From an uncultured Thermoplasmata archaeon (lineage in GTDB: Archaea; Thermoplasmatota; Thermoplasmata; UBA10834): a DNA stretch of 64,000 nucleotides. Location: assembly GCA_963719945.1 (NCBI GenBank), contig CAVRDX010000004.1, positions 259,744-323,743 of the forward strand, given 5' to 3'. Of this stretch, positions 21,113-52,797 are shown piece by piece. The notes under the pieces were generated by a model. The model saw only the letters and a program-made list of their open reading frames with translations. It was not told the origin of the DNA and did no database searches. Numbering within the stretch: position 1 is the first letter of the stretch; each line of letters begins with the position of its first letter. The translations under genes were made by a program, and so were the position numbers.

Positions 21113-21294
21113 CAGCAACACCTCTCCTCTAAGCGGAACACCTGAAGCTTTCCATTTTGAATAATGTTTTGCTATTTTCGTCATTTTTGGCCAGATGTCG
21201 GTCGGATTCCGTTCAGCCGTATCGTGGATAGTGCGCAATCGATGATACTTTGATATTGACTGGCACCATTAGGCCAGCGAGGAGAATCCGGTAC

Positions 21295-31133: not shown

Positions 31134-32708
31134 ATGAACAAGTACTCTCCAAAACCTTGGATCGTCCATGGCGCGAATGAGCCCAGTGATAGAATCACTG
31201 CCAAACGGATTGGGAAATTGCTCCTCAGCAAGCAGAGGATCGGCCTCTTGCTAGGCCCTCTGATGTTCGCAATCATCGTGCTCATTCCAGAGCCACAGTC
31301 CATGATAGACGCTGCATCGAACGTTGGTGCATCTGATCGTGCTCCTCAGATTGCATTGGGCACACTTCTCTGGGTCCTCATCTGGTGGGTCTCGGAATGT
31401 GTTCCGCTGGGGATTGCCGCGTTGATCCCTCCGATAGTCTTCTCGATGTCGCGGATAGTCGGCTGGAAGACATCGCTCACATCCTTCACTGACCCAATAA
31501 TTTGGATATTCATGGCCGGTTTCGTTCTTGCTGCGGCATTCAGGAAGTGGGATCTGGACCGCCGAATCGCGGTGAAGCTAGGCCTGCTGTACAAGGGCAA
31601 GAATCCCATGATAGCCGCATTCTTTGTCGCGGCCTTGCCTGTCTTCATACTCACGCTTACCGGTTCCATCACGGCATCGACTGCAGTCGTGTTCCCTTTC
31701 CTGATCGCATATCTCTCGATGGCTGGAGTCAAATCCGGTGGCAGGTACAGTGAGGCTTGTATGCTCGTGCTCGCTCAAGCGGCGACCGCAGGCGCGATGC
31801 TGCTCCTCATCAGCACTCCACCCAACTTGATTGCCAAGAGTACTGCAGCGGAATTCGGGAACATCGACATCACTTTCTTGGACTGGCTAATTATCGGGAC
31901 ACCCCATGCTCTGATCGGCCTTCTCATCACTTGGGTGGTCGTTTTCAAAGTCTTGAAGCCCGAGGAGAAGAGTGTCGCCGTGGACCGCGACAAGATGATT
32001 GCTCTGTCCAAACAGCTTGGCCGTATGAGTAAGGGGGAGAAGGTTGTAGTCGGCCTGTTGCTCACAGCGATCAGCTTGTGGGTGCTCCCCTCAGTAGTCA
32101 AGATACTGGCGGGCTACAACGAAGGTCTTCAGCCTCTTTCCAACGATCTGACTGCCATAATGCCGGAGGCGATGCCTGCGGTCTTGGTGATTCTGCTGGC
32201 TGGTCTCATAAAGGTCAAGGGAGAACCGGTTCTCAAATGGGAGGAGCTTGCTCGAGGTATTGACTGGAACATCGTCTTCCTATTCGGAGGCGGCATCGCT
32301 CTGGGCATCGGACTCGCAGAGAGTGGGTTCGCGAATTGGCTCGCTACTGGCGTCAGTAGCGCCCTGGGGCCGGATCCGAGTGCATGGGCGATCTTCGCGA
32401 TGTCATGTGTGCTCGGGTTCTTGTTGACATATGCTGCATCGAACACGGCCGCTGCGTTGATCACCTGTCCCATAGCTGCGACCCTCGCATTAGGTGCAGG
32501 AGTGTCCCCGATCCCGCCGATCATTGGAGCCGCCCTCGCCTGTTCCATATCTAGTGCCATCCCGTCGACGACGCCCCCGATGGCGATCGTCTACAGCTCG
32601 GGATATGTCAAGATGTGGAGCATGTTCAAGGTAGGGATCATTTCAGATTTGCTCAGGCTGGGCGTGTTGATATTGATCGGCCCATTCCTTGCCAATCTGC
32701 TGCTGTAA
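31134..32708 (+). CDS. SLC13/DASS-family (divalent anion:Na+ symporter / ArsB-NhaD superfamily) permease
   Basis: 524 aa and highly hydrophobic, with duplicated hairpin-type motifs (ASNTAAALI, SSAIPSTTPPMAIV) typical of the family. Confidence 0.8.
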   Translation: MNKYSPKPWIVHGANEPSDRITAKRIGKLLLSKQRIGLLLGPLMFAIIVLIPEPQSMIDAASNVGASDRAPQIALGTLLWVLIWWVSECVPLGIAALIPPIVFSMSRIVGWKTSLTSFTDPIIWIFMAGFVLAAAFRKWDLDRRIAVKLGLLYKGKNPMIAAFFVAALPVFILTLTGSITASTAVVFPFLIAYLSMAGVKSGGRYSEACMLVLAQAATAGAMLLLISTPPNLIAKSTAAEFGNIDITFLDWLIIGTPHALIGLLITWVVVFKVLKPEEKSVAVDRDKMIALSKQLGRMSKGEKVVVGLLLTAISLWVLPSVVKILAGYNEGLQPLSNDLTAIMPEAMPAVLVILLAGLIKVKGEPVLKWEELARGIDWNIVFLFGGGIALGIGLAESGFANWLATGVSSALGPDPSAWAIFAMSCVLGFLLTYAASNTAAALITCPIAATLALGAGVSPIPPIIGAALACSISSAIPSTTPPMAIVYSSGYVKMWSMFKVGIISDLLRLGVLILIGPFLANLLL

Positions 32709-32835: not shown

Positions 32836-33993
32836 ATGCCACTGGATTTCATCAGCAGCGCGCTTAGCAGGAATAGTGAGCGTTCGTCTTCCGAGCAATC
32901 GAATGACGATCTTGAGATTGAGAAGATTGCAGCGGGCCTAAATGTCCGTATCAAACTTGTTGGCTGTGGCGGAGCTGGTTCGAACACCGTCACCAGGTGT
33001 TACGAGGACGATCTCTCTGGCGTTGAGATGATCGCGATCAATACCGATGCCAAACATCTTCTATCCGTCAAATGCGGTCGGAAACTACTAATCGGAAAAG
33101 TCCTCACCAGGGGAATGGGTGCCGGTGCTAGACCAGAGATCGGTGAGAAGGCCGCGATGGAGAATGAGCGCGAGATAGGCGAGTTCATGAAGGAGGCGCA
33201 GATCGTCTTTGTCACCGCCGGTATGGGTGGCGGAACCGGCACGAGTTCATCGTTCGTCGCGTCGCGTCTCGCAAAGGAGGCACGCGCACTCACCATTGGT
33301 ATCGTCACTCTTCCGTTCAAATCCGAAGGGCAGATGCGAATGGATAATGCGCTGTCAGGATTGACGCGCTTGTCGAAAGTATGCGACACTACGATCGTGA
33401 TACCGAACGATACGCTGCTCGAACTAGTCCCCAACCTTCCTGTACAGGCTGCGTTCAAAGTAGCTGACGAACTTCTTCTGCAGACAATTCGGGGATTGAC
33501 CGAGATGCTCACTCGCTCAGGATTGGTGAATGTTGATTTCGCGGACCTGAGGACGATCATGGATGAAGGCGGAGTCTCGTTGATCGGTGTGGGTGAGTCA
33601 GATAGTGCTCCAGGCGACAGGATGGATGAAGCAGTCAACGAGGCAATGACTTCGCCGTTGCTGGGAATGATGGATCTGAAAGAGGCCAAGGGTGCATTGA
33701 TCAGGGTCGTTGGCGGTCCGGACATGACCATCGAAGAAGCAGCGAGGGCTGCGGAGATCATCTCAGGTAGACTGAGGCAAAATGGTCGGTTGATCTGGGG
33801 CTGCTCCCTCGAACCGGAGATGTCTGGCCGAGTCAAGATACTACTCATAGCGACAGGGGCGAAATCGCAGTACGTGCTTCGGAGAGATGGAGAAGATCCG
33901 GTCATGCAGTCGGCATGCCAGGATTACCGTGGCGAAATCAACCTGCCACCGGATATCCGTTCGGACGAAGACCTTGCGATGTTCGTCAGATGA
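32836..33993 (+). CDS. ftsZ: Cell division protein FtsZ
   Basis: GCGGAGSNTV and tubulin signature GMGGGTGTSS. Confidence 0.95.
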   Translation: MPLDFISSALSRNSERSSSEQSNDDLEIEKIAAGLNVRIKLVGCGGAGSNTVTRCYEDDLSGVEMIAINTDAKHLLSVKCGRKLLIGKVLTRGMGAGARPEIGEKAAMENEREIGEFMKEAQIVFVTAGMGGGTGTSSSFVASRLAKEARALTIGIVTLPFKSEGQMRMDNALSGLTRLSKVCDTTIVIPNDTLLELVPNLPVQAAFKVADELLLQTIRGLTEMLTRSGLVNVDFADLRTIMDEGGVSLIGVGESDSAPGDRMDEAVNEAMTSPLLGMMDLKEAKGALIRVVGGPDMTIEEAARAAEIISGRLRQNGRLIWGCSLEPEMSGRVKILLIATGAKSQYVLRRDGEDPVMQSACQDYRGEINLPPDIRSDEDLAMFVR

Positions 33994-36583: not shown

Positions 36584-36594
36584 CTGAAGGGAAT

Positions 36595-36616
36595 TAGGCT
36601 GACCTAAATTATAAAC
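36595..36616 (-). promoter_or_regulatory. TATA box (36609-36616) plus iron-box-like operator (36595-36608) of the dtxR-feoB operon
   Basis: The minus-sense sequence is TTTATAAT-TTAGGTCAGCCTAA-TTCCCTTCAG-ATG. The palindromic arms are TTAGG/CCTAA, and the ATG is at 36583. Confidence 0.5.
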
Positions 36617-36672: not shown

Positions 36673-36882
36673 TCATTTCCGATGGTCAAGGTACCTCTTG
36701 AATGGGTATGTCTTCAGCTTGATGTCCCTCTCCCCATCAGGAGGATATTCCTCATTATATTCCATCTTAGCAACATCGAGTTCCTTCTCGTTCAGAGAGG
36801 ATGGTTTTATTCCATAATTCTGAACGAGCCAAGTCTCAAAATCGAATTTCAGCCAAACCACCATAAATGGAAGCACTAACAT
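36673..36882 (-). CDS. Hypothetical small protein at the 3' end of the cluster
   Basis: 69-codon ORF with balanced composition (KFDFETWLVQNYGIKPSSLNEKELDVAKMEYNEEYPPDGERDIKLKTYPFKRY). It lies in a locally AT-richer stretch. I recognise no family. Confidence 0.35.
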   Translation of the reverse strand: MLVLPFMVVWLKFDFETWLVQNYGIKPSSLNEKELDVAKMEYNEEYPPDGERDIKLKTYPFKRYLDHRK

Positions 36883-36982
36883 GGGAATTAAACCCTTTCA
36901 TGAAACGTCAGTTTTTTCGAGTAGCCCGGATAATCGCTCCCAACACTCGTTCATCGCATCGATGGCAGGACATTTCAATCGA

Positions 36983-37795
36983 TCATCGATGACGTTTCCC
37001 TTTTGCCATCTCTTTCGCCAAGATCTCATCGTACGGTATCTTGCCAAGGAAATCAACGCCTCTCTCCATTGCCATTCTCTCAATGGAACCCGTGGCGTCA
37101 GCGTTGATGTCTGCCCTATTCACGACGATGGCAGCTCTGATCCCAAAACCATGTACCAGGTCCAGTATTCTCTCGAGATCGCTGAGGCCAGAATTGGTCG
37201 GTTCAGTGACAACCACAGCAATGTTCGCGCCTGACAATGATGATATGACCGGGCATCCAACTCCCGGTGGTCCATCAACGAGAATGAATGGAAGATCATG
37301 TTCTCTTGCCATCATCCGGGCTTTTTGTTTTACTATCGCCACCAGCTTTCCCGAGTTCTCGGCACCTGGTTCCAGGAGCGCATGTATCATTGTTCCGCAG
37401 TCGGTTTCTGAGACGAACCAATCACCGACATACCTGTCCTTCATCTCGACTGCCCCATTGTCACATATCCTGGCACATAGAGCGCATCCTTCACACGCAT
37501 CTGCATCTATTCTGACCTTGCCAATGCCAGGATTGCCTGTGCTTAGTATGGCATCGAATCTGCATGCAGGGATGCACCAACCACAACTGGAGCACATGGT
37601 ATCATTTATCTCCGCAATCTTCGAACCGATGAAACGCTCACTCTGAACCATCTTTGGCCTAAGCATCAGATGAAGGTTCGGCGCATCGACGTCACAATCC
37701 GCCAGCACTTTATCATGCATCACAGAGGCCAGAAATCCTAGAAATGTGGTCTTGCCAGTTCCACCTTTTCCGCTTATTACGACGATTTCCTTCAT
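36983..37795 (-). CDS. MinD/ParA-type P-loop ATPase with inserted 2x[4Fe-4S] ferredoxin domain (copy 2)
   Basis: Deviant Walker A VISGKGGTGKTT. Ferredoxin motifs CSSCGWCIPACRFDAI and CEGCALCARICDNGAV. ATGA overlap with copy 1. Confidence 0.85.
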   Translation of the reverse strand: MKEIVVISGKGGTGKTTFLGFLASVMHDKVLADCDVDAPNLHLMLRPKMVQSERFIGSKIAEINDTMCSSCGWCIPACRFDAILSTGNPGIGKVRIDADACEGCALCARICDNGAVEMKDRYVGDWFVSETDCGTMIHALLEPGAENSGKLVAIVKQKARMMAREHDLPFILVDGPPGVGCPVISSLSGANIAVVVTEPTNSGLSDLERILDLVHGFGIRAAIVVNRADINADATGSIERMAMERGVDFLGKIPYDEILAKEMAKGKRHR

Positions 37796-38676
37796 CGAGA
37801 TGCCTCCTTCAGAATGCAGTCTCTTAGCTCCGAGAATACACTAGCATATTCCGGAAGGTCCGAGATGATTCCTCCTTTCGAGTAGATCTCGGCAATCCTT
37901 CTATCAAGGGGTAATGTGCCAGCTACTGGCACATCTAGCGATTCACATAGCTTGCGGACATTTGGGCCGGGGAGACCATACTTGTTGATGAACACCATCG
38001 TGGGTATGTCGAGCTTTCTTGTCACGTTTAGCGCCAGCTTCAGGTCATGGATCCCAAACGGAGTGGGCTCGGTCACCAGAACGCAGATGTCTGCTCCTCT
38101 GATGCTCTCCACCGCTGTGCATGCTGTCCCAGGCGGGCAATCTATTATCGTTACATAATCGCCAGGGATCGCCCTCTTCACCTTCTTTATCAATGAGGTA
38201 GCCGTTGCCTCGCCCACCTTCAACCTCCCATACAGGAGGTTCAGTATGCCTCCATTCGCTCTGACGATGGCACCCATCATATGGTCCTTCTCAATGATCG
38301 CATCTTCCGGACAGAGCATCGTGCATGCGCCACAGCCATGGCAGAGTTCTTCGAATACCATGACTTCCTTGGGCAGCACGACGATGGCATGGAATTCACA
38401 TACTTTGCCGCAATTCCCGCATAGCGTGCATTTGTCTCGGTCTATTTTTGGCACGGGTCTGTAGGCAGCTTGCTCCGAATTGGAGGTGGCGCCTGCAAAG
38501 ATGTGGCAGTTGGGCTCTTCCACATCCAGATCAACGAGAAGAGAACCATCAGTCACTGCTGCGAGGTTGGTGGCGACCAGGGTCTTTCCAGTCCCTCCCT
38601 TTCCGCTGGCTATCGCTATTCTGATTGGATCTCCTCCATTACACGAGGGCATGATCAGTGGTGATGATCCTTGCAT
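37792..38676 (-). CDS. MinD/ParA-type P-loop ATPase with inserted 2x[4Fe-4S] ferredoxin domain (copy 1)
   Basis: IASGKGGTGKTL. Ferredoxin motifs CTLCGNCGKVCEFHAI and CHGCGACTMLCPEDAI. The start is 38676 or the internal ATG at 38652. Confidence 0.85.
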   Translation of the reverse strand: MQGSSPLIMPSCNGGDPIRIAIASGKGGTGKTLVATNLAAVTDGSLLVDLDVEEPNCHIFAGATSNSEQAAYRPVPKIDRDKCTLCGNCGKVCEFHAIVVLPKEVMVFEELCHGCGACTMLCPEDAIIEKDHMMGAIVRANGGILNLLYGRLKVGEATATSLIKKVKRAIPGDYVTIIDCPPGTACTAVESIRGADICVLVTEPTPFGIHDLKLALNVTRKLDIPTMVFINKYGLPGPNVRKLCESLDVPVAGTLPLDRRIAEIYSKGGIISDLPEYASVFSELRDCILKEASR

Positions 38677-39014
38677 GCGATATCATGTGTCGCTGGCTGC
38701 AGCTTACCCTCGGTCCACAGCTTGATTGCGTCTCTCGCAGTTCCGGTCGCTCCTACGAATACTTCGATGTTGAACGACTGGAGCATGTCGATTGCCCTTG
38801 GTCCAAGGCCAGCGCATAGCATGATCCGAGCACCGGTTTTCGCTATGTGCTCTGGTGGTTTTCCAAGGCCACCCATGTGCTCGCTCCTGTTCTTCACGAT
38901 CAAAACATCGTTGCTGTCGAGGTCCACTACCGTGAACGTCGGCGCGCGGCCGAAGTGATCGCTCACAAGATCATCCAATCCACCTTTGTCCATTGTTGGT
39001 ATGCAGAGTTTCAT
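38655..39014 (-). CDS. NifB/NifX-family (dinitrogenase Fe-Mo cofactor biosynthesis domain) protein, copy 2
   Basis: 119 aa. DHFGRAPTFTVVD...GARIMLCAGLGPRAIDML...IEVF is the NifX/NifB-C fold pattern. ATGA overlap with the upstream Zn-ribbon ORF. Confidence 0.85.
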   Translation of the reverse strand: MKLCIPTMDKGGLDDLVSDHFGRAPTFTVVDLDSNDVLIVKNRSEHMGGLGKPPEHIAKTGARIMLCAGLGPRAIDMLQSFNIEVFVGATGTARDAIKLWTEGKLQPATHDIACKDHHH

Positions 39015-39172
39015 CTGTTAGCACTCCTGTTCTTTTCGATCTTATCTTTGAATCGCATCCTCCACCCTTCTCTGAGTATTTTGGTGGAGCCGCAGCAAAA
39101 GCATTTATCGGGTTTCTCGGGCATGGCAATATCGAGTCCGCATGCACCACATCTGAATCTGAGGATTCTCAA
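39011..39172 (-). CDS. Small zinc-ribbon protein
   Basis: CGACG...(12)...CFCCGS. The proposed TTG start forms a TTGA overlap with the IscU-like stop. The ORF-track version starts at the ATG at 39256, inside the IscU-like gene. Confidence 0.5.
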   Translation of the reverse strand: MRILRFRCGACGLDIAMPEKPDKCFCCGSTKILREGWRMRFKDKIEKNRSANR

Positions 39173-39636
39173 TTCGTCCCCTTCTTGGTTTTTGAATTTC
39201 TTCCTTCGCAATCTCTTATTGCATTCCTGAACGCGATTATGGCGAGGTTGGCGCAATGCCTGTGATCCTCCGGAAGCCCTCCCAGCGAGTGTTCGAGTTC
39301 CTCCGCCCTCAGCTTCTTTGCCTCGTCGATGGTCTTGCCAGAAACCATCTTTGTCAGCCGACTTCCGCAGGCTATAGTCGCGCCGCAGCCATCAGTATAG
39401 AATACACATCGCGTTATGCGGCCGTCCTCCACTCTTATCCATATCTCCATTGTGTCCTTGCATAGACCATCTGCGATGCCATTCCCATTTGCTTCGTCGA
39501 TAGGACCTACGTTCGCCGGATTCCTGAACTCAGCGATGACCTCTTTTGAATAGATCGCTGATTCATCCGCATCGATTACGGCCATTATGTTATCGACGAG
39601 TCTGTCGAGTTCGGAGGCTTCTTGTTCGTCGCTCAT
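39169..39636 (-). CDS. NifU-N/IscU-like Fe-S cluster scaffold protein
   Basis: Three scaffold Cys contexts: GLCKDTM, YTDGCGATIACGS and HRHCANLAIIAF. The ATG at 39636 is preceded by GAGGGTG. Confidence 0.85.
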   Translation of the reverse strand: MSDEQEASELDRLVDNIMAVIDADESAIYSKEVIAEFRNPANVGPIDEANGNGIADGLCKDTMEIWIRVEDGRITRCVFYTDGCGATIACGSRLTKMVSGKTIDEAKKLRAEELEHSLGGLPEDHRHCANLAIIAFRNAIRDCEGRNSKTKKGTN

Positions 39637-39643
39637 GGCACCC

Positions 39644-40066
39644 TCATCCATTTGGATTCGGCCCATGCGGACCACGACCATGATGCCCAGGGGATGTCCA
39701 TGACGCCATCTGCGTCAGTTCTCCTTTCTTGAATGCATCAACTGCAGACCCGACCGTCCCTACGCATCTCGTGAATGCAGCGACACCGCTGCCGTTCAAA
39801 ACCATGAAAGCGTTAGGTCCAAGATGTCCAGTGATCACCACTCCGACTCCAAGGTCCACGACCTTCTGAGCCGCCTGAGTGCCGGCTCCACTGCCGGAGT
39901 CCTGGCCAGGGTTTCTTACCGCTCGATGTGATCCATCTGTCTCGAACACGACGAAGTAATTGCATCGGCCGAATCGTGGATCAAGAGGTGAATCTATCGA
40001 ATCACCAGTCGCACTCACTGCTATGCATCGCTTGTCTTCGTCTCTTGCAGACTCTCTCGAATTCAT
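39644..40066 (-). CDS. NifB/NifX-family (Fe-Mo cofactor biosynthesis domain) protein, copy 1
   Basis: RFGRCNYFVVFE...GVGVVITGHLGPNAFMVL...AAF, with a His/Gly/Pro-rich tail. ATG at 40066, internal to ORF 39644..40312. Confidence 0.85.
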   Translation of the reverse strand: MNSRESARDEDKRCIAVSATGDSIDSPLDPRFGRCNYFVVFETDGSHRAVRNPGQDSGSGAGTQAAQKVVDLGVGVVITGHLGPNAFMVLNGSGVAAFTRCVGTVGSAVDAFKKGELTQMASWTSPGHHGRGPHGPNPNG

Positions 40067-40070
40067 GTAT

Positions 40071-40241
40071 TCACTCCCAACATTGAGTCCCACGCATTCT
40101 TGAGCCACAATATGGACACAAAGTCCTGTTGCATGGCACGCCTCTTGTTGCGTGAGGCACTCGTTTCCCGCACTTCGGGCACACGCATAAGGTGGACCCG
40201 AACTCGGAACAGTCGTCACTTGAGGATTCTTGGTTCTCCGC
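40071..40241 (-). CDS. Zinc-ribbon ORF (CVCPKCG...CPYCG); start unresolved, possibly the 3' part of a frame-disrupted gene
   Basis: CVCPKCGKRVPHATRGVPCNRTLCPYCGSRM sits at the 3' end of ORF 40071..40379. A TTG at 40241 is one possible start. Confidence 0.45.
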   Translation of the reverse strand, partial: AENQESSSDDCSEFGSTLCVCPKCGKRVPHATRGVPCNRTLCPYCGSRMRGTQCWE

Positions 40242-40401
40242 CAATCCTTCCCCTCCAGAATCTTTGAGGGCGCATCCGTCTCGGATTGCCAAGATTGCAT
40301 CCACACTGACATGGTCTGCCTCTAGATCCGAATCCTGGGTCACCGGATTTGTGATATTCGCGGTTGTATCCAGCACCACGTCCTCCGATACCTCTCCTCA
40401 T
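40216..40401 (-). CDS. Gly/Arg-rich small ORF (DUF5320-like N-terminus by recollection)
   Basis: The ATG at 40401 directly abuts the Mrp stop (TAG-ATG). The product begins MRRGIGGRGAGYNREYHKSGDPGFGSRGRP. It overlaps the Zn-ribbon ORF in another frame. Confidence 0.45.
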   Translation of the reverse strand: MRRGIGGRGAGYNREYHKSGDPGFGSRGRPCQCGCNLGNPRRMRPQRFWRGRIGGEPRILK

Positions 40402-41262
40402 CTAGCTCACCTCTTTTTCAACCAACTTGATGATCCTGTCCGTGATTGGTTCGAAAGCCTTTGACGCACCATTCGAGCCACCTGCAAATGGCTTGCCCTC
40501 ATCACCGCTCTTGGCAATCTCGGGATCGATAGGAAGCTTTCCAAGGATTGATATGGAGAGATCTTTGACAGCTCTCTCGACGCCGCCGTCCTCGAACAGC
40601 TTTATTTCCTTTCCACAATGCGGGCATTGCAGGCCATACATGTTCTCAACAAGTCCCAGTGTTCTCAGTCCGACTGCCTTCGCGAAATTGATGGATTTCC
40701 TGACGCTGAGGAGGGCGACATCCTGAGGCGTGGTCACTATGATTGTCCCGTCGGGGGATGGGACGAGCTGGGCCACGCTCAATGGCTCATCTCCAGTCCC
40801 TGGAGGCAGGTCGACGATCAGATAATCAAGTTCACCCCAGGATACCTCTTCGAGAAACTGCTTTATCGCGCCCATCTTCACAGGCCCTCGCCAGATCACC
40901 GGCGAGTCTTTGTCCTTGAGCAAGAATGCAATCGAAACGACCTTGATCGATGATCCGAAGATGGCAGGCATGATCTTGCCGTTCTCGTCTATGTTCAATG
41001 GCAGATTCGGCAATCCCAACATTTTGGGCACGCTTGGGCCATGCATGTCCGCATCAAGCAGACCGACTTTCCTTCCTTTCTTGGCTAATCCTGCAGCGAG
41101 ATTCACGGCAACAGTGGATTTCCCAACGCCGCCCTTGCCGCTCATCACTATGATCTTGTGTTTGACCCCTCTGAGGTTCTCCTCTGCGCTGTTGCCGGAT
41201 TTATCCTTGGAGGGAGCTGTCTGCTTTCCAGTGAATGCGTTCATACTATCGACACTCTCCAT
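40402..41262 (-). CDS. Mrp/NBP35/ApbC-family Fe-S cluster carrier ATPase
   Basis: VMSGKGGVGKSTVAVNLA Walker A, a DLPPGTGD motif, and CPHCG. Confidence 0.9.
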   Translation of the reverse strand: MESVDSMNAFTGKQTAPSKDKSGNSAEENLRGVKHKIIVMSGKGGVGKSTVAVNLAAGLAKKGRKVGLLDADMHGPSVPKMLGLPNLPLNIDENGKIMPAIFGSSIKVVSIAFLLKDKDSPVIWRGPVKMGAIKQFLEEVSWGELDYLIVDLPPGTGDEPLSVAQLVPSPDGTIIVTTPQDVALLSVRKSINFAKAVGLRTLGLVENMYGLQCPHCGKEIKLFEDGGVERAVKDLSISILGKLPIDPEIAKSGDEGKPFAGGSNGASKAFEPITDRIIKLVEKEVS

Positions 41263-41267
41263 CTGAT

Positions 41268-41654
41268 CTAGCAGGTGAACACTCGGTCTGCATCAGCAGC
41301 CTCAGCAGCGAAATCCATGAGGTTGATGAACTCGACTCCCTCGATGAACGCTTTCTTGTCTATGCCCCTTGTTTCAAGGCAAGGGATGCAGACCTGGACT
41401 TTGCCACCGCTCTGCACGAACGCGTCGATCATCTGCTTCACAGGTGCCATGCCCTCTACCGACTTGAGCTTCTCCGCAAAACCCTTCTGGACAAGCTTGA
41501 CCCCGCTTCCGGTCAAGAACACCTTCGTCTTGATGCCAAGCGCGGATGATGCGCCTGCACAAGCGAAGGTCATGGTCGCTCTTTCGACATCCTCGTCTCC
41601 GTGCGTTCCAACAACGATGAACGACTTCTTGCTGTAATCTTTAGCTTCTGACAT
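41268..41654 (-). CDS. DsrE/DsrF-like (sulfur-relay fold) protein
   Basis: 128 aa. The pattern FIVVGTHGDEDVERATMTFACAGASSALG...VFLTGSGVKLV...VCIPCLETRG resembles COG2044 DsrE-related proteins, by recollection. Confidence 0.7.
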   Translation of the reverse strand: MSEAKDYSKKSFIVVGTHGDEDVERATMTFACAGASSALGIKTKVFLTGSGVKLVQKGFAEKLKSVEGMAPVKQMIDAFVQSGGKVQVCIPCLETRGIDKKAFIEGVEFINLMDFAAEAADADRVFTC

Positions 41655-41700
41655 TCTGATACCTATGTGATACTAGCGGCATCAGGGTCAAGTCAGGAAC

Positions 41701-41716
41701 GGCGAACAAGTTCGCC
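41701..41716 (-). other. Intercistronic stem-loop
   Basis: GGCGAAC-AA-GTTCGCC lies in the 74-nt gap between the DUF1847-like and DsrE-like genes. No T-run follows it. Confidence 0.3.
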
Positions 41717-41728
41717 GCCCGCCAAATA

Positions 41729-42322
41729 TCAATCTTCAGAAAGGCCAAACCTGTTCTCCTTGTAGTACGCGCTGTATATGGCTCCAATTGGGTTGTGCGC
41801 GAGCACTCGATCCTTCACTATGAGTGTCGTCACAGGTGCCTTCGAGTGTTTCGTGAAGAGTATGTCGTGCCCGATGCACAGGCCGATCGCGATGTTCATT
41901 TCAGTGCCTACCTCTGCGAGGCACATGGCTTGACCGATTGGATTGCAGACTGCTTCATTGGCGCTATCTCCATGCATCTTGACCACTCCAAGGTCAGCCT
42001 TGTCTATTCCGCAGACCTTGCAGCATACTGAATGGACTTCGAAGTCGTTCTTCTGCAGGATATCCGTGATGGTTCTTGCCTCCGATGAAAGGCCGACACA
42101 GAATGCCACCCCGAGCTTCTTCATTCCCATCTCTTTCGCGTAGATGATCAGCTCTTCGAGTCTCGTTAGCTTCATGTAGTGCTCGGCTTCGATCTTGCCT
42201 GAGACGAGCATGGATTCGAGGTCGAACCCTTCGTACTCTCTCTTGGCCTTCTGCGCCAAACCGAAGCAGTCTTTACCCTCGTAGCAGTCCTTCTTGTCGC
42301 AATGCGCGCAATCCGTTCGCAT
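41729..42322 (-). CDS. Cys-rich metal-binding protein (DUF1847-like by recollection)
   Basis: MRTDCAHCDKKDCYEGKDC N-terminus plus CCKVCG and CIGHD. The ATG at 42322 is preceded by GGAAGGTG. The ORF-track N-terminal extension is Arg/Ser-rich and overlaps the upstream gene. Confidence 0.65.
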   Translation of the reverse strand: MRTDCAHCDKKDCYEGKDCFGLAQKAKREYEGFDLESMLVSGKIEAEHYMKLTRLEELIIYAKEMGMKKLGVAFCVGLSSEARTITDILQKNDFEVHSVCCKVCGIDKADLGVVKMHGDSANEAVCNPIGQAMCLAEVGTEMNIAIGLCIGHDILFTKHSKAPVTTLIVKDRVLAHNPIGAIYSAYYKENRFGLSED

Positions 42323-42353
42323 CTTCCACACCTTCCTTCGTCTCGCAGCAGTA

Positions 42354-42998
42354 TCAGCAGATCTCTCCAATATGGCTCGCAACAAGCTTCCTCTCAGCCC
42401 TTCGCAAGATGACATCGAGAGTCGCTTTTGATATCTCCAACTTCTTCGCGAGCTTATCGAGCGTGACCTTCCTCGGAATTTCGAAATATCCTGACTGGAA
42501 CGCGATCTGGAGCACTTTCTCCTGGGCAACAGTCAGTTCGGAGGCGGTTCTCATGACCGATACTTTCTCCACCTCGACGGTGCAACCCAAATCCTTGACC
42601 TTGGCCACAAGGTCTGTCAGAACCGCAGCATTTGGAGCTATCACGTTCCATTGCATGACGCCGTTCTCGCGGTTGGATGCGGAATCTAGAAAACATCCAG
42701 AATCGGCCATCAATCTGCAGGCTGCACAAGTCTGGAGTTCCACGGTGCCGATGTGTCGACCAGGCCCTGCGCTTGTGAGCTGCACGTTGCAGTTCGGTTC
42801 GATGGCGCGTATCTTATCGACAAGCTCCTCTTGCGTGATCCCAGGATCCGTATCTATCTGGAGGAGGCTCTGTCCGCCGGTACCGTTCTTCGGTATGCAT
42901 CTGAGTATCTTCACTGAGAGGTCGCAACTGCTCGCGAGGCACCCTATCCAGTTGCCTGGTATCTTGATAAGAAGTGACGCGAATCTCAAACCGATCAT
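42354..42998 (-). CDS. HTH_10 (Bat-type) DNA-binding regulator with Cys-containing N-terminal domain
   Basis: C-terminal LTVAQEKVLQIAFQSGYFEIPRKVTLDKLAKKLEISKATLDVILRRAERKL is the HTH_10 signature. The ATG at 42998 forms an ATGA overlap with the DUF134 stop. Confidence 0.75.
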   Translation of the reverse strand: MIGLRFASLLIKIPGNWIGCLASSCDLSVKILRCIPKNGTGGQSLLQIDTDPGITQEELVDKIRAIEPNCNVQLTSAGPGRHIGTVELQTCAACRLMADSGCFLDSASNRENGVMQWNVIAPNAAVLTDLVAKVKDLGCTVEVEKVSVMRTASELTVAQEKVLQIAFQSGYFEIPRKVTLDKLAKKLEISKATLDVILRRAERKLVASHIGEIC

Positions 42999-43352
42999 CC
43001 GTTTCCTTCTGCCGTCGTCTCGATCGATTCTGACTCCGGTCCTTTCGAGCGGACGGGTCGATTGTATGCGGGACATTCCTCGCGAATCTTGAGTGCAGAA
43101 CCGTCGATCAACGATTTTGCCGCCTTATATCTGGCGCTCGACAATATTCGATTAAATGTCGGTTGTGACACGTCCATCTTCTCTGCGGATTGACCTTGTG
43201 AAAATCCTTCCAGATCCGACAATCTGAGTGCCTCTAGTTCATCCAAGTTCCATCTCTATGCTTGATAGTTCGTTCAAGGGAGTCCCTTGTGGTTTGAATA
43301 TCTTGTAATTGGGGTCCAGGCAGACCTTTCTGCATCTCTTTGGTCTAGGCAC
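42995..43352 (-). pseudogene. DUF134 (UPF0251) DNA-binding protein, reading frame broken by one extra nucleotide near 43243
   Basis: From the GTG at 43352 one frame gives MPRPKRCRKVCLDPNYKIFKPQGTPLNELSSIEMELG-stop. The +1 frame continues LDELEALRLSDLEGFSQGQSAEKMDVSQPTFNRILSSARYKAAKSLIDGSALKI. Together these form a canonical DUF134. Confidence 0.8.
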
Positions 43353-43354
43353 GG

Positions 43355-43384
43355 TTATGAATAATAATTCATAACTACTTTAAT
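43355..43384 (-). promoter_or_regulatory. Promoter/operator candidate of the cluster: TATA-like ATTAAAG plus a 20-bp palindrome
   Basis: TTATGAAT-AATA-ATTCATAA (43355-43374) ends 3 nt upstream of the GTG at 43352. A TATA-like element (plus strand CTTTAAT, 43378-43384) lies about 29 nt upstream of the start. Confidence 0.45.
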
Positions 43385-43771
43385 CTTGTCCATGAATAAC
43401 CTCGAGGTCGAGCAGTCATACCGAACCTCAGGCTAGGCATCTGCGTCGATCATCACGAACGTGTCCCGATGGAATTGAAAATCATCGTCGATTATTATGC
43501 ATCATTTATATAGTCAAATGATGACCTCAGATGCTTTGATTCCTGATGCGTGTTTTATGAGTGAGGCGAAACCATTAACACCCGTAAACCTCCATATCTA
43601 TTCCTAGGACTCTTGGCATTCGCTGAGAGGGTAGGTGGTTTGTTTCATGGAGCGACCAGTAGATCGGTCCACCGGTGCCTCTGCATCCAGAGGCCGGGGA
43701 ACCCATTGAGCTGACAGGCTACCGACTGTTGACCATCTCCGTCCGGTTCAGAGATGGTGCATGGAGGTGAG

Positions 43772-44230
43772 ATGGTGGATAGACAGAATATTGGAGACCC
43801 GATCAAAATATTGTTGGTGGAGGACAATCCAGGGGATGTTCGACTCACCGTAGAACTCTTCAAGGAATGCAAGATAAGAAACGACATGTTTGTCGTCAAC
43901 GACGGCATAGAAGCAATGGAATACCTGAGACACGCGGGGAAGTACGCCGATTCGAAACATCCGGACTTGATACTTCTGGACCTCAACCTTCCACGTAAGG
44001 ATGGACGCGAGGTTCTAAAAGAGATCAAGACCGATGAGAAACTGAAGCGGATCCCCGTTGTCATCCTGACCACGTCCAGGGCAGAGGCGGACATAATCAG
44101 GACCTACGATTCATACGCAAATTGCTATGTCACGAAACCTGTGAACCTCGACGAGTTCATGAAAGTCGTTCAATCTATCGAGTCATTCTGGCTTTCTATA
44201 GTGAAGCTGCCTCCTGATGGCACGAGGTGA
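43772..44230 (+). CDS. Stand-alone response regulator receiver (CheY-like)
   Basis: [10 protein letters not shown], phospho-acceptor context [10 protein letters not shown], and TKP. The ATG at 43772 is preceded by GGAGGTGA; an alternative ATG is at 43754. Confidence 0.85.
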
Positions 44231-44240
44231 ACCTTAGGGT

Positions 44241-46095
44241 ATGTTGAGCGTACTGCTTATAGAAGACAACCAGGGCGATGTCCGCTTGATTCGGGAAATG
44301 ATCAGGGAGAGAGAGACCGTCTCTCTATTCGCCCTCGAATACGTATCGACATTAGAGGACGGACTGGAGGCCATCGACAATGGACACTTCGATATCATCC
44401 TACTCGACTTGGGATTGCCAGACAGCCAGGGATTGAATACCCTGAGGACGTTGCGGTCCAAAGCCCCGAAGTCGCCTATTGTCATCATCACCGGACTTGC
44501 GGATGAAGTCACTGGGATATCTTCCTTGGAAATAGGCGCAGATGATTTTCTGAATAAGAGGGAGCTGAACGCAAGCTATCTGACCCATGCGATATTGTAT
44601 GCGATTCAGAGAAAGGCCTTGACTGAGAAGTTGAAGCTGAGCGACGCATCGGTCGAATCTGCGAACAGCGGGCTTATTGTAGCTGGACCGAAGTGGGAGA
44701 TACAACATGCGAATTTGTCCGCTTCACAATACCTAGGCTACACCCAGACAGAGCTTCATAATCAGTTATTGACCAAGTTCTCGAAGGATGAATCTAAACT
44801 CGTTGCTGGGCTGAGATCCGTTGTGATGACTTCAAGCTGGAGCGATGAGATCGAGATGATTCGAAAGGATGGCGATCCGTTGCTGGCCGAAGTGTCAGCC
44901 ACCGCTGTCAAGGACGAATCTGGCAAAGTCACGTACATAATCGTCTCCTTCTCGGACATTTCTGCTCTGAGGGCTGCGGAGCATGAGCTTCAAGCCACAG
45001 AGAAGAAGTATCAGCACCTATTCACTATTGCAATGGAAGGATTCTGGGTGATTGATCCTTCTGCCAAGACTATCCTAGCTAATCCCAGGATGGCTGAGAT
45101 GCTCGGATACACTTCTGAGGAAATGGCTGGCAGAAGCCTCTTCGAGTTCATGGATGGCGAGAGCAAGGAGCTCATCAATATGCTCCTGCGGCCGCGGAAG
45201 TCTGGCATGTCTGAGAAACACGAAATCACTTTCGTGAAGAAGGACGGATCCGCGCTGTATGCCCTTCTGCACGCCACGCCGATCATGGATCCGGATGGTT
45301 CGTATTCTGGAGCACTTGCGTGCGTCGCAGACATATCTGATCGCAAGCGATATGAGATTGAGCTTAAGGAACGAACCGAAGAGGCCGAGGCGCAGCGGCA
45401 GCGGGCTCGCACATATTTCGATTTGCTGGCACACGACATTGCAAACCTGATCTCGCCTATTCAGCTATATTGCGATCTCACCCGCCTTGAGAAGAATCAT
45501 TCCTCGGAGACTCTGCTTCGGGCTAAGCGTTTGTCAGACCAATCGAAAAGAGCATCATCATTGATCATCAACCTCAGAATGCTGGAGGAGCTTGAGCGAG
45601 TCGGCCCAGGGAACGTCGAATCGATCGACCTCATTGAAGTAATTGCGGATGTGAACGAGAAGGCAAGGTCGGAGTATTGGTCGAAGAGCGTCAGTCTGAA
45701 GATCGTTGGTCACAAAGGGGAAAGCGTCCATGTTAAAGGTGGCACATGGACGAAGCATGTCATATCCGAGATTATCAACAATTCGGTCAAGCACTCCGAT
45801 AGCAACGCTGTCAATATCCGCATCAGCATTTCAGAGGTTGACTGTGGGTCCGGAATTGAAGGTTGGCAGATTGATTTCAGTGACGATGGCCCTGGCATTC
45901 CAAACGATATGAAGGATCTTCTCTTCTCTACGTTTCGACCCAATGAGGCGTTTCAAGCGAGGAGTCGCTACGAACATGTCTTTCTGTTCCAGTTTCGTCA
46001 AGCATTTTGGAGGCGAGATAATAATCGGCGACCGAATTGAATCCCACCCTGAGAAAGGTGCCAAGATCACATTGAGATTGCCAAAAGGTGAGTGA
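44241..46095 (+). pseudogene. Hybrid sensor kinase (REC, 2x PAS, HisKA-like, HATPase_c) with a +1 frame break in the ATPase domain
   Basis: REC (LLIEDNQGD, DIILLDLGLPD), two PAS-like blocks, an H-box (LAHDIANLISPI) and an N-box (IINNSVKHS). The annotated tail after about 45910-45963 is nonsense. The +1 frame gives RFDPMRRFKRGVATNMSFCSSFVKHFGGEIIIGDRIESHPEKGAKITLRLPKGE, with its stop at 46093-46095. Confidence 0.8.
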
Positions 46096-46586: not shown

Positions 46587-48570
46587 TCATGCAATTCCTG
46601 TCGATCCCTCTATTCCATCCGGTATGCTGAAAATAAACCTTGCTCCTTTTCCGGGCTCAGATTCTAACCAGATCTTGCCGCCATGCCGCTCGACTATCTT
46701 CTTGCATATCGCGAGTCCGATGCCTGTCCCGGAATATTTACGACCTGCGTGCAATCGCTGGAATATGATGAATATCCGTTCCGAATATTGCGCTTCAATT
46801 CCTATCCCATTGTCCTGGACTGAGAATACCCATTCGCCAATCCCTCGTTCTGCAGAGATGTGGATTCGGGGGGTGTCATCCCCTCGGAATTTCATTGCAT
46901 TGCTGAGCAGATTCTGGAGCAACTGCACGAGCTGACCTGGATCGGCTACAACAATCGGAAGCGGGCCAGTAGTGATGATGGCCCCGTTGTCTTCTATCGC
47001 CATCTTCAAATTGAGCATTGATTCCTTGAGGACATTATTGAAATCGATCTTGGAGAACTGCTTTCCTCGCGTTCCAACCCTCGAGAATGCAAGCAGATCA
47101 TTTATCATTCCTTGAAGCCGGTTTGCTCCATCAACAGCATATCCGATGAATTCATCCGCATCGTCATCCAGCTTCCCTTCGTATCGTCGAGACAGGAGTT
47201 CCAGATAGCTGGCGATCATGCGAAGCGGTTCCTGCAAATCATGAGATGCGATATATGCGAATTGCTGGAGCTCGTCATTGGACCTCTTCAACTCTACATT
47301 GGCCAAGTCTAGTTCCACGGTCCTCTCCTGTATCTTCTTCTCCATGTCGTCCCGATACTCCTTGAGGCTCGCGGTCATCTCGTTGAATGTGGATGCGAGC
47401 TCACCGATCTCGTCTCTGGAACTGTATGTCGACCCTCCTATCGAGATTCCCTCCAGAAACGTCTCGAGCTGCTCCCGTGAACAGTCTGATAGGTCTTATG
47501 ACGGATCGCATCGAGAAATATGCTACGACCCCTCCTAATGCCAATAGCACCGCTGTTATCTGTATTGCGACATTGCGCAGCTCGTGTGCGGGAGCGAGCA
47601 CTTCGTTGAGGTTGTAGCCGACGAGGATGATCCATCCGAATCCACCATAATTCAGATATCCTGGCGAAGTGGCATAGGAATAAAGCACATCGCATCCTCC
47701 TTCAGTCGTGACGAATGATCCAGTCTCGCCATCCAATTGTACAAAGTAACTCTTATCCGAGATGTTTTCCAAGGTGGCATATGCATCCGAAGAGTACAAT
47801 AGTCTACCATCTGGAGTGACCGCCTTGATCACTCTGCTGGCATATGGTGACGGCGTCAGTTCTATCTCGGTTTCCCTGACAATGCCAATCAGGTTCACGA
47901 TGCCCTTCATGACGCCGACCATGGTTCCGCTACTATCTTCTATTCTCACACATACGCTGACTCCGTATGTGCGAGAGCAATCATCGTAGCCCATGTCGCT
48001 GATGTAACTCCCGTTCTCCACAGTAGCGTGCCACCATTCATCATCCTGCAGATACTCGGTCACTCTAGAAGACATAGCAATAGTCGCTCCATACATGTTG
48101 GTGATGAGGACATTATTGTAGACATCGTATCCTCTCTCCACGAGGTTTTTATCAACCAACCGTTCCTTGATTATTTTGGAAAGGTTATTGTTCTCGATTG
48201 ATTGAATGAGCTCTGAAGTCTCATCGAACGGCACGGAGTGCCACTCAGAATCGATTTCTGCGATGTATGCTTCGAGATCCGGTAACTCACCGAAATCAAT
48301 GTTCGATTGTGACACAGCATCGACGAGTTCCGAGTCTTGGGACAGGAGGTCGATGGCATAATGTTTCAATAATATGCCTCTATCCAGGCTGAACGAGGAT
48401 TTCCACGCGACAGCAATCGTGCCCTCCGCAGTTGTGTTCTTCAGGGTTTCGCTGTTCTGTATAAGAACCAACCATGTGAGTCCGCTCATTAAGACAAGTA
48501 CAGCTATGAATCCGACACCCAACTTGAATGTCACACCGGATCCGAACTGGAGTTTGGTATCGCTGGTCAT
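46587..48570 (-). pseudogene. Membrane sensor histidine kinase (TM, extracytoplasmic Cache-like domain, TM, HAMP, HisKA, HATPase_c) split by a +1 frame break inside HAMP
   Basis: ORF 47401..48570 ends RPIRLFTGAARDVSGGNLDRRVDIQFQRRDR-stop. The frame of ORF 46587..47378 is open upstream and reads SSRDEIGELASTFNEMTASLKEY, then SHDLQEPLR (H-box), and GTGIGLAICKKIVERHGG. Confidence 0.8.
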
Positions 48571-52506: not shown

Positions 52507-52797
52507 GGTGTTCCTGTTAACGATTTCCAAAGGAAATACCTTTTCGAGTGACCATTATCGTGCATTCGACTGATTTAGCGACCGAGAAATAGGATGGCTC
52601 GGCACCTAAAAATAGGGACATCGCAGATTCTCCCTCGTCTGCGATTCTAGCGAACTTCGATTACTCCAGGGGACATATACATGGATCACGGTGCCAGGGA
52701 CAACAGTCTTAACAGTGGACAGGGATTCTACGGAAGCAACTACAAGGGAACACAACATAAGGTGATCAAATCCAAGACGGTCGATCATCAGAGGCCA

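Follow-up and report, generated by a model that had tools for sequence, protein, structure and literature searches.

Here we describe a gene cluster on the minus strand, at positions 36983-43352, in the genome of an uncultured Thermoplasmata archaeon (assembly GCA_963719945.1, contig CAVRDX010000004.1, positions 259,744 to 323,743); this whole 64-kb stretch of 64,000 nucleotides is referred to throughout as the window. A first-pass annotation had placed thirteen genes between 36673 and 43384 and regarded them as a self-contained, iron-linked and undescribed system for the assembly or trafficking of metal clusters. Our analysis identifies twelve genes, the first encoding a DUF134 regulator and the last the second of two MinD-type ATPases, and their core (Orp3/4, Orp8 and Orp9 counterparts) matches the orange protein (ORP) complex already published from Desulfovibrio (PMC6345978, PMC8359166). 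The cluster represents the ORP type of anaerobes in an archaeal variant, with IscU, DsrE and DUF1847 proteins added and with other regulators, and the analysis reveals no new kind of system.

Gene content and extent of the operon

Hidden Markov model searches against Pfam and NCBIfam upheld most of the family assignments that had been read from the sequence, namely DUF134, HTH_10, DUF1847, DsrE, Mrp/NBP35, two NifX-like proteins, IscU and two MinD-ferredoxin ATPases, with DUF5320 as the exception. The proposed content of proteins handling iron-sulfur (Fe-S) clusters or metal sulfides is borne out by their motifs: the IscU-type protein has its Cys ligands, Mrp its Walker A and CxxC motifs, and the NifX-like proteins stand beside two ATPases that each carry two [4Fe-4S] motifs.

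In the list of open reading frames (ORFs) the gene run from 36983 to 43352 is unbroken on the minus strand. The single-strand arrangement was described correctly, while both of its limits required revision: the former 5′ limit, 43384, falls within the promoter and not within a gene, and a small ORF at the other end belongs to the neighbouring Feo module (see below), so that the operon ends at 36983. All five junctions that had been quoted for the cluster are exact, comprising ATGA overlaps at 42995-42998, 39011-39014 and 37792-37795, a TTGA overlap at 39169-39172 and a TAG-ATG abutment at 40399-40404. Overlap or abutment is seen in four gene pairs, spacers of 31, 74 and 100 nt are present between genes, no terminator-like sites were found on the minus strand of the cluster, and Rfam returned no known RNA family within the region. 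Because the overlaps are exact, the window holds a single operator and minus-strand terminator-like sites are lacking, the 12 genes probably constitute one leaderless operon. The tight junctions and the single conserved 5′ promoter/operator also support the earlier view of these genes as one conserved functional unit.

Conservation of the ATPase pair and its neighbourhood

The operon closes with ATPase A (Orp3/4-like; 37792-38652, minus strand) and its paralogue ATPase B (36983-37795, minus strand). Both match CbiA/ParA and Fer4 profiles, and both MinD-type domains are interrupted, as previously noted, by an inserted ferredoxin domain with two [4Fe-4S] motifs. ATPase A is a 286-aa protein (100% identical to P0001) whose start lies 8 codons inside a 294-aa ORF. 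Its 8 ferredoxin Cys and a Cys in switch II (C178) are invariant in an alignment of 83 sequences (83/83); of the 79 sequences in the corresponding alignment of ATPase B, 78-79 keep the ferredoxin Cys and 77 the Cys in switch II (C181). In both families the switch-II Cys lies seven residues past the Walker B Asp, which may be the position of the cluster ligand Cys132 of NifH; this equivalence is a lead only. The AlphaFold2 (AF2) model of ATPase A (pLDDT 92) has MinD, ApbC, Cfd1, ATPase-type HypB, NifH and BchL as its nearest folds, with TM scores of ∼0.55-0.6, and a PDB search found its ferredoxin insert in no solved structure.

Neighbourhood conservation was assessed by scanning one genome per species with the ATPase A alignment, which yielded 80 loci. 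Component counts were made over 82 loci by assigning each six-frame ORF to the best-matching window protein, and profile searches gave nearly the same counts. Fetched loci carry L-numbers, among which L001-L004 and L087 denote related Thermoplasmata contigs. The archaeal loci derive from Thermoplasmata, Bathyarchaeia, Thorarchaeota, Methanothrix, Methanocellaceae, Methanohalophilus and Altiarchaeota, and the bacterial loci from Dehalococcoidia, Desulfobacterota, Planctomycetota, Ignavibacteria, Omnitrophota, Thermotogae, Clostridia and others. ATPases A and B are adjacent in 79 of the 82 loci, NifX-like proteins are present in 74, Mrp in 47, the first zinc-ribbon protein (Zn1) in 37, IscU in 33 and DUF134 in 30. 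Rarer components are DUF1847 (7/82), the DsrE-like protein (4-5/82), HTH_10 (4/82) and the second zinc-ribbon protein, Zn2 (4/82), with HTH_10 and DsrE limited to Thermoplasmata in this set. The core of the cluster is thus kept across both domains, and the full gene order of the window is found solely in the five Thermoplasmata relatives L001-L004 and L087.

When the other ORFs in the flanks of L003-L082 were clustered without bias, further recurrent neighbours emerged that are absent from the window: DUF5320 proteins (31/82 loci), radical SAM proteins (23/82), ARMT1-like/DUF89 proteins (17/82), sigma-54 activators of the kind published for orpR (17/82), MBL hydrolases (16/82), Zn_ribbon_8 proteins (14/82), DUF364/DUF4213 (9/82), CGGC proteins (7/82) and TrmO-like proteins (7/82).

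Sampling that began from DUF1847, independently of the ATPase A scan, arrived at ORP-like clusters too, since DUF1847 adjoins them in L007, L029, L061, L083 and L084. The L083 cluster comprises HTH_10, Mrp, a NifX protein with a Gly/Arg tail, a second NifX, two ATPases, IscU and DUF1847, and that of L084 comprises DUF134, two DUF5320 proteins, Mrp, two NifX proteins, two ATPases, IscU and DUF1847. These observations bear on the notion that the genes have no common function and are unrelated small metalloprotein genes packed into a compact archaeal genome. The restriction of DsrE, HTH_10 and Zn2 to one lineage and the 31-, 74- and 100-nt spacers would fit such a notion, to which we give almost no credence given the co-occurrence of the core in 82 loci of both domains, its recovery from DUF1847 and the four gene pairs that overlap or abut.

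The same data speak to a role in cell division or positioning, in which the MinD/ParA-like ATPases would place a structure and the Fe-S parts would do no more than supply redox input. MinD is the closest fold to ATPase A, a cell-division role has been proposed for ORP, with MrpORP at the poles in Desulfovibrio (PMC6345978, PMC8359166), and an ftsZ gene (32836-33993) lies 3 kb from the cluster. Against this, the fold search gives ApbC, Cfd1, HypB and NifH at scores similar to that of MinD, and the constant partners of the ATPases are scaffold, carrier and cofactor-binding proteins, not division proteins. Nor could the ftsZ neighbour be retained as support: its adjacency accompanies feoB and not the cluster, as seen in L086. 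We consider a positioning role very unlikely, and the presence in one operon of IscU, Mrp, a possible sulfur relay, the ATPase pair and NifX carriers strengthens the view that the system handles a metal-sulfide cargo over one in which it acts in cell division.

Comparison with the ORP complex and other known systems

The ORP complex of Desulfovibrio has been under study since 2011, and an archaeal origin has been proposed for it (PMC8359166). In D. vulgaris, Orp3 and Orp4 have two [4Fe-4S] ferredoxin motifs each, Orp8 is the orange protein, which belongs to the NifX family and binds a Mo-Cu-S cluster non-covalently, Orp5 is a small protein with a [2Fe-2S] cluster, and Orp9 (MrpORP) hands a [4Fe-4S] cluster to Orp3-Orp4-Orp8 in vitro (PMC6345978). 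The MinD-ferredoxin ATPases of the window, which had been taken to lack any assignment, correspond to Orp3 and Orp4 by their architecture as described. D. vulgaris Hildenborough and D. alaskensis G20 likewise possess two adjacent paralogous MinD-type ATPases with two [4Fe-4S] motifs each, and the two systems further share a single-domain NifX-family protein, an Mrp/NBP35 ATPase, candidate small Cys-rich proteins (Zn1 and Zn2 in the window), a restriction to anaerobes and a dedicated Cys-containing regulator. They differ in that the Desulfovibrio genes form two divergent operons whereas those of the window form one, and in that sigma-54, OrpR and IHF serve in Desulfovibrio in place of the DUF134 and HTH_10 proteins, TATA-like element and palindrome found here. 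The IscU, DsrE and DUF1847 proteins are extra in the window and are not listed as components of the Desulfovibrio complex (PMC6345978, PMC8359166).

A further difference concerns Mrp, which is fused to a Di-Nase domain in MrpORP and encoded separately in the window, where NifX1 represents the Di-Nase part; such fusions arose many times independently (PMC6345978). The window gene (40402-41262, minus strand; Pfam ParA/NUBPL, 317 bits) encodes a carrier ATPase for Fe-S clusters, of the ApbC type, whose Walker A motif is deviant (GKGGVGKS) and whose CxxC motif reads CPHC. Among the NCBIfam models MrpORP scores highest (360 bits, model positions 2-254 of 365), and the cut-off of 450 bits is missed since the Di-Nase domain is encoded by a gene of its own. 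NifX1 aligns weakly with the Di-Nase portion of that model (positions 260-359, E 3e-4), and NifX2 also matches this C-terminal part. With the Mrp/NBP35 carriers ApbC, Nbp35-Cfd1 and Ind1 the window protein shares the GKGGxGK[ST] Walker A and the C-terminal CxxC for a bridging [4Fe-4S] cluster, ApbC and Cfd1 being also among the structural neighbours of the window ATPases; it differs from these carriers in sitting in a dedicated cluster beside its probable clients.

NifX1, a NifX/IssA-like protein (39644-40066, minus strand, ATG start at 40066; Nitro_FeMo-Co, 72 bits), has an RFGRC motif and a tail of ∼25 aa rich in Gly, His and Pro. Automatic calls of this gene in L001 and L002 (186-190 aa) extend into the zinc-ribbon gene, and the calls in L087 (57, 141, 155, 45 and 119 aa) agree with our reading of the window. 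The IscU/NifU-N scaffold gene (39169-39636, minus strand; NifU_N, 100 bits) starts at ATG 39636, with alternatives at 39651 and 39681, and its product retains the three ligand Cys, the Asp and the His (CxD, GC and HC) of Archaeoglobus fulgidus IscU (PDB 4eb5_C, 2.8e-28).

NifX2 (38655-39014, minus strand; Nitro_FeMo-Co, 71.8 bits) is a single-domain protein resembling MTH1175 and the orange protein. Its PDB matches are 1t3v, 1o13, 2yx6, 1rdu, 1eo1 (MTH1175, E 1.3e-9) and 2wfb (D. gigas ORP, E 6.4e-9). Homology of NifX2 to the D. gigas orange protein, the founding member, which carries [S2MoS2CuS2MoS2], and the Mo-Cu-S cluster that Orp8-type proteins bind non-covalently (PMC6345978) would be in keeping with the handling of thiomolybdate or thiotungstate (Mo/W-S or Mo-Cu-S), either to detoxify or to traffic the thiometalates of sulfidic habitats. 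The nearest PDB relatives of NifX2 are, however, Thermotoga and Pyrococcus proteins and not ORP, and neither transporters for molybdate or tungstate nor molybdopterin genes were found in the cluster, among the scanned window ORFs or among the recurrent neighbours; we judge thiometalate handling to be quite unlikely.

The logic of the cluster is also similar to that of nitrogenase cofactor assembly by NifU, NifH and NifB/NifX/NafY, where a NifU/IscU scaffold, a dimeric deviant-Walker-A ATPase with redox clusters and a switch-II Cys, and NifX-type carriers of complex clusters act together; a radical SAM gene is adjacent in 23 of the 82 related loci. The window cluster differs in having no NifB, NifEN or NifDK and in the ferredoxin inserts of its ATPases, as opposed to a single bridging cluster. 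It also contains no radical SAM gene.

Promoter, operator and regulators

At the 5′ end of the operon (43355-43384, minus strand) a TATA-like element, ATTAAAGT (43377-43384), precedes a perfect palindrome, TTATGAAT-AATA-ATTCATAA (43355-43374). The palindrome ends 2 nt ahead of the GTG start of the DUF134 gene, which implies a leaderless transcript, and its position between TATA box and start codon suggests repression, that is, a repressor-type site. As TTATGAATAATAATTCATAA it occurs once in the 64-kb window. The 32 bp ahead of the DUF134 start codon are kept in the window, L001, L002 and L004, and further upstream the sequences differ.

Within the 1.24 Mb of fetched loci, and with up to one mismatch allowed, TATGAAT-N4-ATTCATA is confined to promoters of these clusters, against a chance expectation of ∼0.2 matches by our own estimate for uniform base composition. 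It is present in three archaeal phyla: Thermoplasmata (L001, L003, L004), Thorarchaeota (L016, L033) and Methanobacteriota (L043). Both Thorarchaeota loci have it in tandem before the first NifX gene, with two copies 24 bp apart (L016, 2716-2765; L033, 9016-9065), and the NifX gene behind the tandem copies in L016 encodes a Gly/Arg tail. In L043 it lies at 245-270 and 685-710, one copy abutting the DUF134 ATG and the other preceding NifX1. Because L016 and L043 are without HTH_10 genes and have DUF134, DUF134 is the likeliest protein to bind the palindrome, which we regard from its distribution as most likely a putative DUF134 operator.

The regulator gene itself (DUF134, also UPF0251; 42995-43352, minus strand) belongs to the family that had been named for it. 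In the window it is split by a 1-nt frameshift, and its start is the GTG at 43352 rather than a codon at 43384. The N-terminal piece (43239-43352, 37 codons, with a PRPKRCRKVC motif) begins VPRPKRCRKVCLDPNYKIFKPQG... and runs from GTG 43352 in a frame different from that of the C-terminal HTH piece (42995-43246, 83 aa). DNA alignment against the intact L001 and L002 genes locates an extra T at 43245/43246. The Pfam DUF134 match (48.7 bits) covers profile positions 37-90 only; once the frame is repaired, the product aligns with PRK04217 over positions 11-98. L001, L002, L004 and L087 have an intact gene, and the frameshift may be real, leaving a pseudogene or a split gene, or may stem from an error in the assembly. 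A full-text literature search retrieved no paper characterising DUF134; of its matches, one concerned DUF1349 and another was a passing mention.

The second regulator (42354-42998, minus strand; Pfam HTH_10, 69.9 bits) has a 150-aa N-domain in which, as the first-pass annotation had it, Cys residues including a CAAC are present; this domain carries a conserved CxxCx7C motif (C91, C94 and C102). The family of this N-domain comprises 115 representative clusters among 1.84 billion proteins, with lengths of ∼205-220 aa; HTH_10 is found in each of the 37 members aligned, with conservation of at least 90% for the three Cys. An orthologue with 37% identity flanks the cluster in L083. By analogy with OrpR, whose three-Cys [4Fe-4S] redox sensor (PMC8359166) the motif parallels without homology, CxxCx7C is a candidate three-Cys sensor.

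Putative accessory Cys-rich proteins

The DUF1847 protein (41729-42322, minus strand; Pfam 181.9 bits) has 10 Cys that are conserved in alignment, among them an N-terminal CxxCx4Cx5C and a CCKxCG motif. Its AF2 model (pLDDT 89) matched no PDB fold at E≤0.001, and a fold like that of the aspartate racemase C-domain, Dph2 or NifEN was rejected, the best PDB matches having E≥1.6e-3 and TM scores of 0.2-0.4. In the record for L083, labelled [Eubacterium] cellulosolvens, HTH_10 is present and DUF1847 is 61% identical to the archaeal protein; this contig may be mis-binned archaeal sequence, possibly from a rumen Thermoplasmata.

The spacer between the DUF1847 and DsrE genes contains a 38-nt element, GGGCGGCGAACTTGTTCGCCGTTCCTGACTTGACCCTG (41683-41720, minus strand), which is kept in the window, L001, L002 and L087, all Thermoplasmata, while its flanks diverge. 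Its palindromic core shows no covariation at the stem positions and it has no Rfam match; an RNA hairpin or known RNA was accordingly dropped, and because the core lacks covariation a protein site or an internal promoter seems likelier. The DsrE/DsrF-like small protein that follows (41268-41654, minus strand; Pfam DsrE, 66.1 bits) has a CxxC at VCIPC and matches PDB 3mc3 at 5.7e-10, which would make it a candidate sulfur-relay component.

Both zinc-ribbon motifs are present as first described. Zn1 (40071-40244, minus strand) is a 57-aa protein with a TTG start at 40244 and the motif CVCPKCG...H..GVPC...CPYCG..M.G; it differs from its L001 counterpart by 15 substitutions at third codon positions against 7 and 6 at the other two, and in L087 a 57-aa gene is called at its position. 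In its homologues in 37 of the 82 loci the ribbon forms the C-terminal half of a 60-90-aa protein, usually preceded in the same ORF by an MPRGDGTGP Gly/Arg-rich half that scores 22-26 bits against DUF5320 (cut-off 27). The Thermoplasmata proteins, that of the window included, have a short acidic N-terminus. Zn2 (39011-39172, minus strand; 53 aa, CxxC...CxxC, TTG start within the TTGA overlap) is conserved in L001-L004, with a 45-aa gene called at the same position in L087. It has no significant match in Pfam, and small Zn_ribbon_8 proteins, which we take to be related to it by motif pattern, are present in another 14 loci. For the small Cys-rich Orp5/Dde_3197, the candidate counterparts are Zn1 and Zn2.

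The Gly/Arg-rich ORF between Mrp and Zn1 (40216-40401, minus strand; 61 aa) is a doubtful gene that overlaps two other frames. It has no Pfam or NCBIfam match, recurs in L001 only, and differs from the L001 sequence by 23 substitutions spread 7/9/7 over the codon positions, about three-quarters of them non-synonymous and without third-position excess, so that its earlier listing as a gene does not hold. The segment diverges from L001 by 12%, as against 20% in adjacent coding sequence, and has no codon-position pattern in any frame. The DUF5320 assignment given to this ORF fails with it: Pfam (PF17253) returns no match, and a BLASTP comparison with an L004 ORF of similar Gly/Arg richness, itself without a Pfam match, gives an E of 0.075. 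At the same position L002-L004 have a different gene after Mrp, encoding a zinc ribbon with a Gly/Arg tail. We abandoned the idea of a single Gly/Arg and zinc-ribbon gene broken by a frameshift or read through a programmed +1 shift, since L001 has a stop upstream in the ribbon frame, L002-L004 have other genes and the substitutions look neutral. The ORF is possibly a relic of a DUF5320-type gene or of a zinc-ribbon gene with a Gly/Arg tail.

The Feo module and the proposed link to iron

The small orphan ORF that had been counted as the last member of the cluster (36673-36864, minus strand; 63 aa, MVVWLKFDFETWLVQNYG...) is a gene of the Feo module. It is under clear purifying selection (∼80% amino-acid identity with L002) and is better conserved than the neighbouring genes. 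It has only 38 relatives, and those that are named or lie on examined contigs are from Thermoplasmata/Thermoplasmatota. In every contig examined (L001, L002, L086 and L087) it lies just upstream of dtxR-feoA, and in L086 it precedes DtxR-FeoA/FeoB with no ORP-type cluster upstream and with its own TATA-like element conserved there too. Membership of the metal-cluster system was therefore ruled out, as the ORF accompanies Feo, and it may be a Feo-associated small protein.

Ahead of dtxR-feoA, at 36594-36615, a TATA box (TTTATAAT) is followed by a DtxR-box-like palindrome (TTAGGTCAGCCTAA) some ∼10 nt before the ATG. This TATA box and the TTAGGTnnnCCTAA palindrome are conserved in five loci (the window, L001, L002, L086 and L087), an arrangement that looks like autoregulation; the NCBIfam score of the DtxR-FeoA regulator is slightly nearer MntR than DtxR. 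The cluster promoter carries no DtxR-box-like palindrome, and DtxR control of the cluster was rejected, TTAGGTCAGCCTAA being found before dtxR-feoA only, with a 1-mismatch copy at 26371 inside an NFACT gene that we take as chance. The ftsZ gene is convergent with feoB and is followed by a Na/sulfate-type symporter gene (31134-32708); this arrangement is kept in L001, L002, L086 and L087 and travels with Feo, not with the cluster.

The iron link that the first-pass annotation had drawn thus reduces to adjacency. DtxR-FeoAB has its own promoter and a different operator, the module stands alone in L086, and L004 has the cluster without Feo. In loci outside the close relatives, Feo or DtxR appears in the flanks of a minority (7/78), where our own rough estimate for feoB by chance is ∼0.5 loci.

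These figures matter for an alternative in which the cluster stores and mobilises iron sulfide. NifX/IssA-like proteins and cationic Gly/Arg-rich partners would bind an anionic, thioferrate-like Fe-S polymer and so buffer the iron supplied by Feo, the ATPase-ferredoxin pair would deposit or release the polymer with ATP and electrons, and IscU and Mrp would take up the freed Fe and S. IssA of Pyrococcus furiosus is an IPR003731 protein with a cationic Gly-rich tail that binds anionic thioferrate, and it can rebuild ferredoxin clusters (PMC5524996). The window proteins NifX1 and NifX2 have the same IPR003731/Nitro_FeMo-Co domain, and NifX1 counterparts in L083, L016 and L043 carry long Gly/Arg tails. 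IssA differs in being a self-assembling storage particle for which the searched passages of that source name no ATPase partners. Further points in favour are the Gly/Arg segments that recur in Zn1 relatives, DUF5320 in 31 of 82 loci, the 7 of 78 distant loci with Feo or DtxR in their flanks, and two NifX/IssA homologues, encoded four genes apart (Mvol_0689-0693), that rose together with FeoB and DtxR in Methanococcus voltae grown on pyrite (PMC8516115). On the other side, the tail of the window NifX1 is short (∼25 aa), the N-terminus of Zn1 is acidic, the Gly/Arg ORF is doubtful, and the Feo module is served by a promoter and operator of its own and is apart from the cluster in L004 and L086. 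We regard this storage alternative as doubtful.

Proposed working of the cluster and its significance

We think it reasonably probable that this Thermoplasmata version of the anaerobe-specific ORP cluster is a line of scaffold, carrier and ATPases working on an inorganic metal-sulfide cargo held by the NifX-type proteins. Fe-S clusters would be assembled on the IscU-type scaffold, with sulfur arriving via the DsrE-like protein or directly from sulfide. Mrp/NBP35 would ferry [4Fe-4S] clusters and load the ferredoxin domains of the two MinD-type ATPases, a transfer that, like the physical complex itself, is carried over by analogy from the Desulfovibrio papers (PMC6345978). ATPases A and B may then form an ATP-switched heterodimer with one switch-II Cys from each at the dimer interface, comparable to the deviant-Walker-A dimers NifH, Nbp35-Cfd1 and HypB. 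The substrate of such a dimer would be an inorganic metal-sulfide species, which the two NifX/orange-protein/IssA-like carriers would bind non-covalently, and the zinc-ribbon proteins and DUF1847 could serve as accessory metal-binding partners. As for control, DUF134 would bind the palindrome, with the HTH_10 protein and its presumed three-Cys sensor as a second regulator.

Several observations weigh against this scheme. For the Desulfovibrio complex a role in cell division has been proposed. Orthology to Orp3 and Orp4 was judged by architecture, DVU2103/2104 being compared by published description only, and the equivalence of the switch-II Cys to Cys132 of NifH is tentative. Mrp has no fused Di-Nase domain and scores under the MrpORP cut-off. 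The frameshifted DUF134 may be inactive in this genome, or the assembly may be wrong, and the roles of DsrE, HTH_10 and Zn2, which are lineage-restricted, may be peripheral. Finally, no cysteine desulfurase (IscS/NifS/SufS) or SufBCD was found among the cluster genes or in 20 other window ORFs scanned, and with no desulfurase to mobilise sulfur in the cluster the system cannot be called self-contained.

Few gene neighbourhoods that await a physiological role are as widespread among strict anaerobes as the ORP-type cluster, which unites three families still classed as DUFs (DUF134, DUF1847 and DUF5320). New here are the palindrome at cluster promoters of three archaeal phyla, the switch-II Cys in both ATPase families and the CxxCx7C motif of the HTH_10 regulator. 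They raise three hypotheses: that the palindrome is an operator for DUF134, that the ATPases dimerise with the switch-II Cys at their interface, and that the HTH_10 regulator senses through three Cys. More broadly, and only tentatively, the ORP-type pan-cluster might represent a fourth anaerobe-wide machinery driven by ATP and electrons, beside ISC, SUF and NIF, made up of the NifH-like ATPase pair with its switch-II Cys, NifX/IssA-like carriers, IscU, Mrp, cationic Gly/Arg and zinc-ribbon proteins, DUF1847 and often a radical SAM protein, with DUF134 as its ancestral dedicated regulator. If so, this machinery would build or mobilise free inorganic Fe-S species, thioferrate-like or NifB-co-like, and DUF134 would recognise TATGAAT-N4-ATTCATA in archaea.

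Other genes of the window

The remainder of the 64-kb window holds ordinary archaeal genes, and among those scanned there are no SUF or ISC genes. Divergent from the cluster promoter, a response-regulator gene and a receiver-PAS-histidine-kinase hybrid occupy 43754-46040 on the plus strand; L001, L002 and L087 have other genes at this position. More kinase genes and genes for periplasmic binding proteins follow at 46587-49823. Long ORFs without a Pfam match at the thresholds used are located at 47401-48570 (389 aa), 52681-54339 (552 aa) and 57348-58874 (508 aa), and an MttB-family gene is present at 19679-21238.

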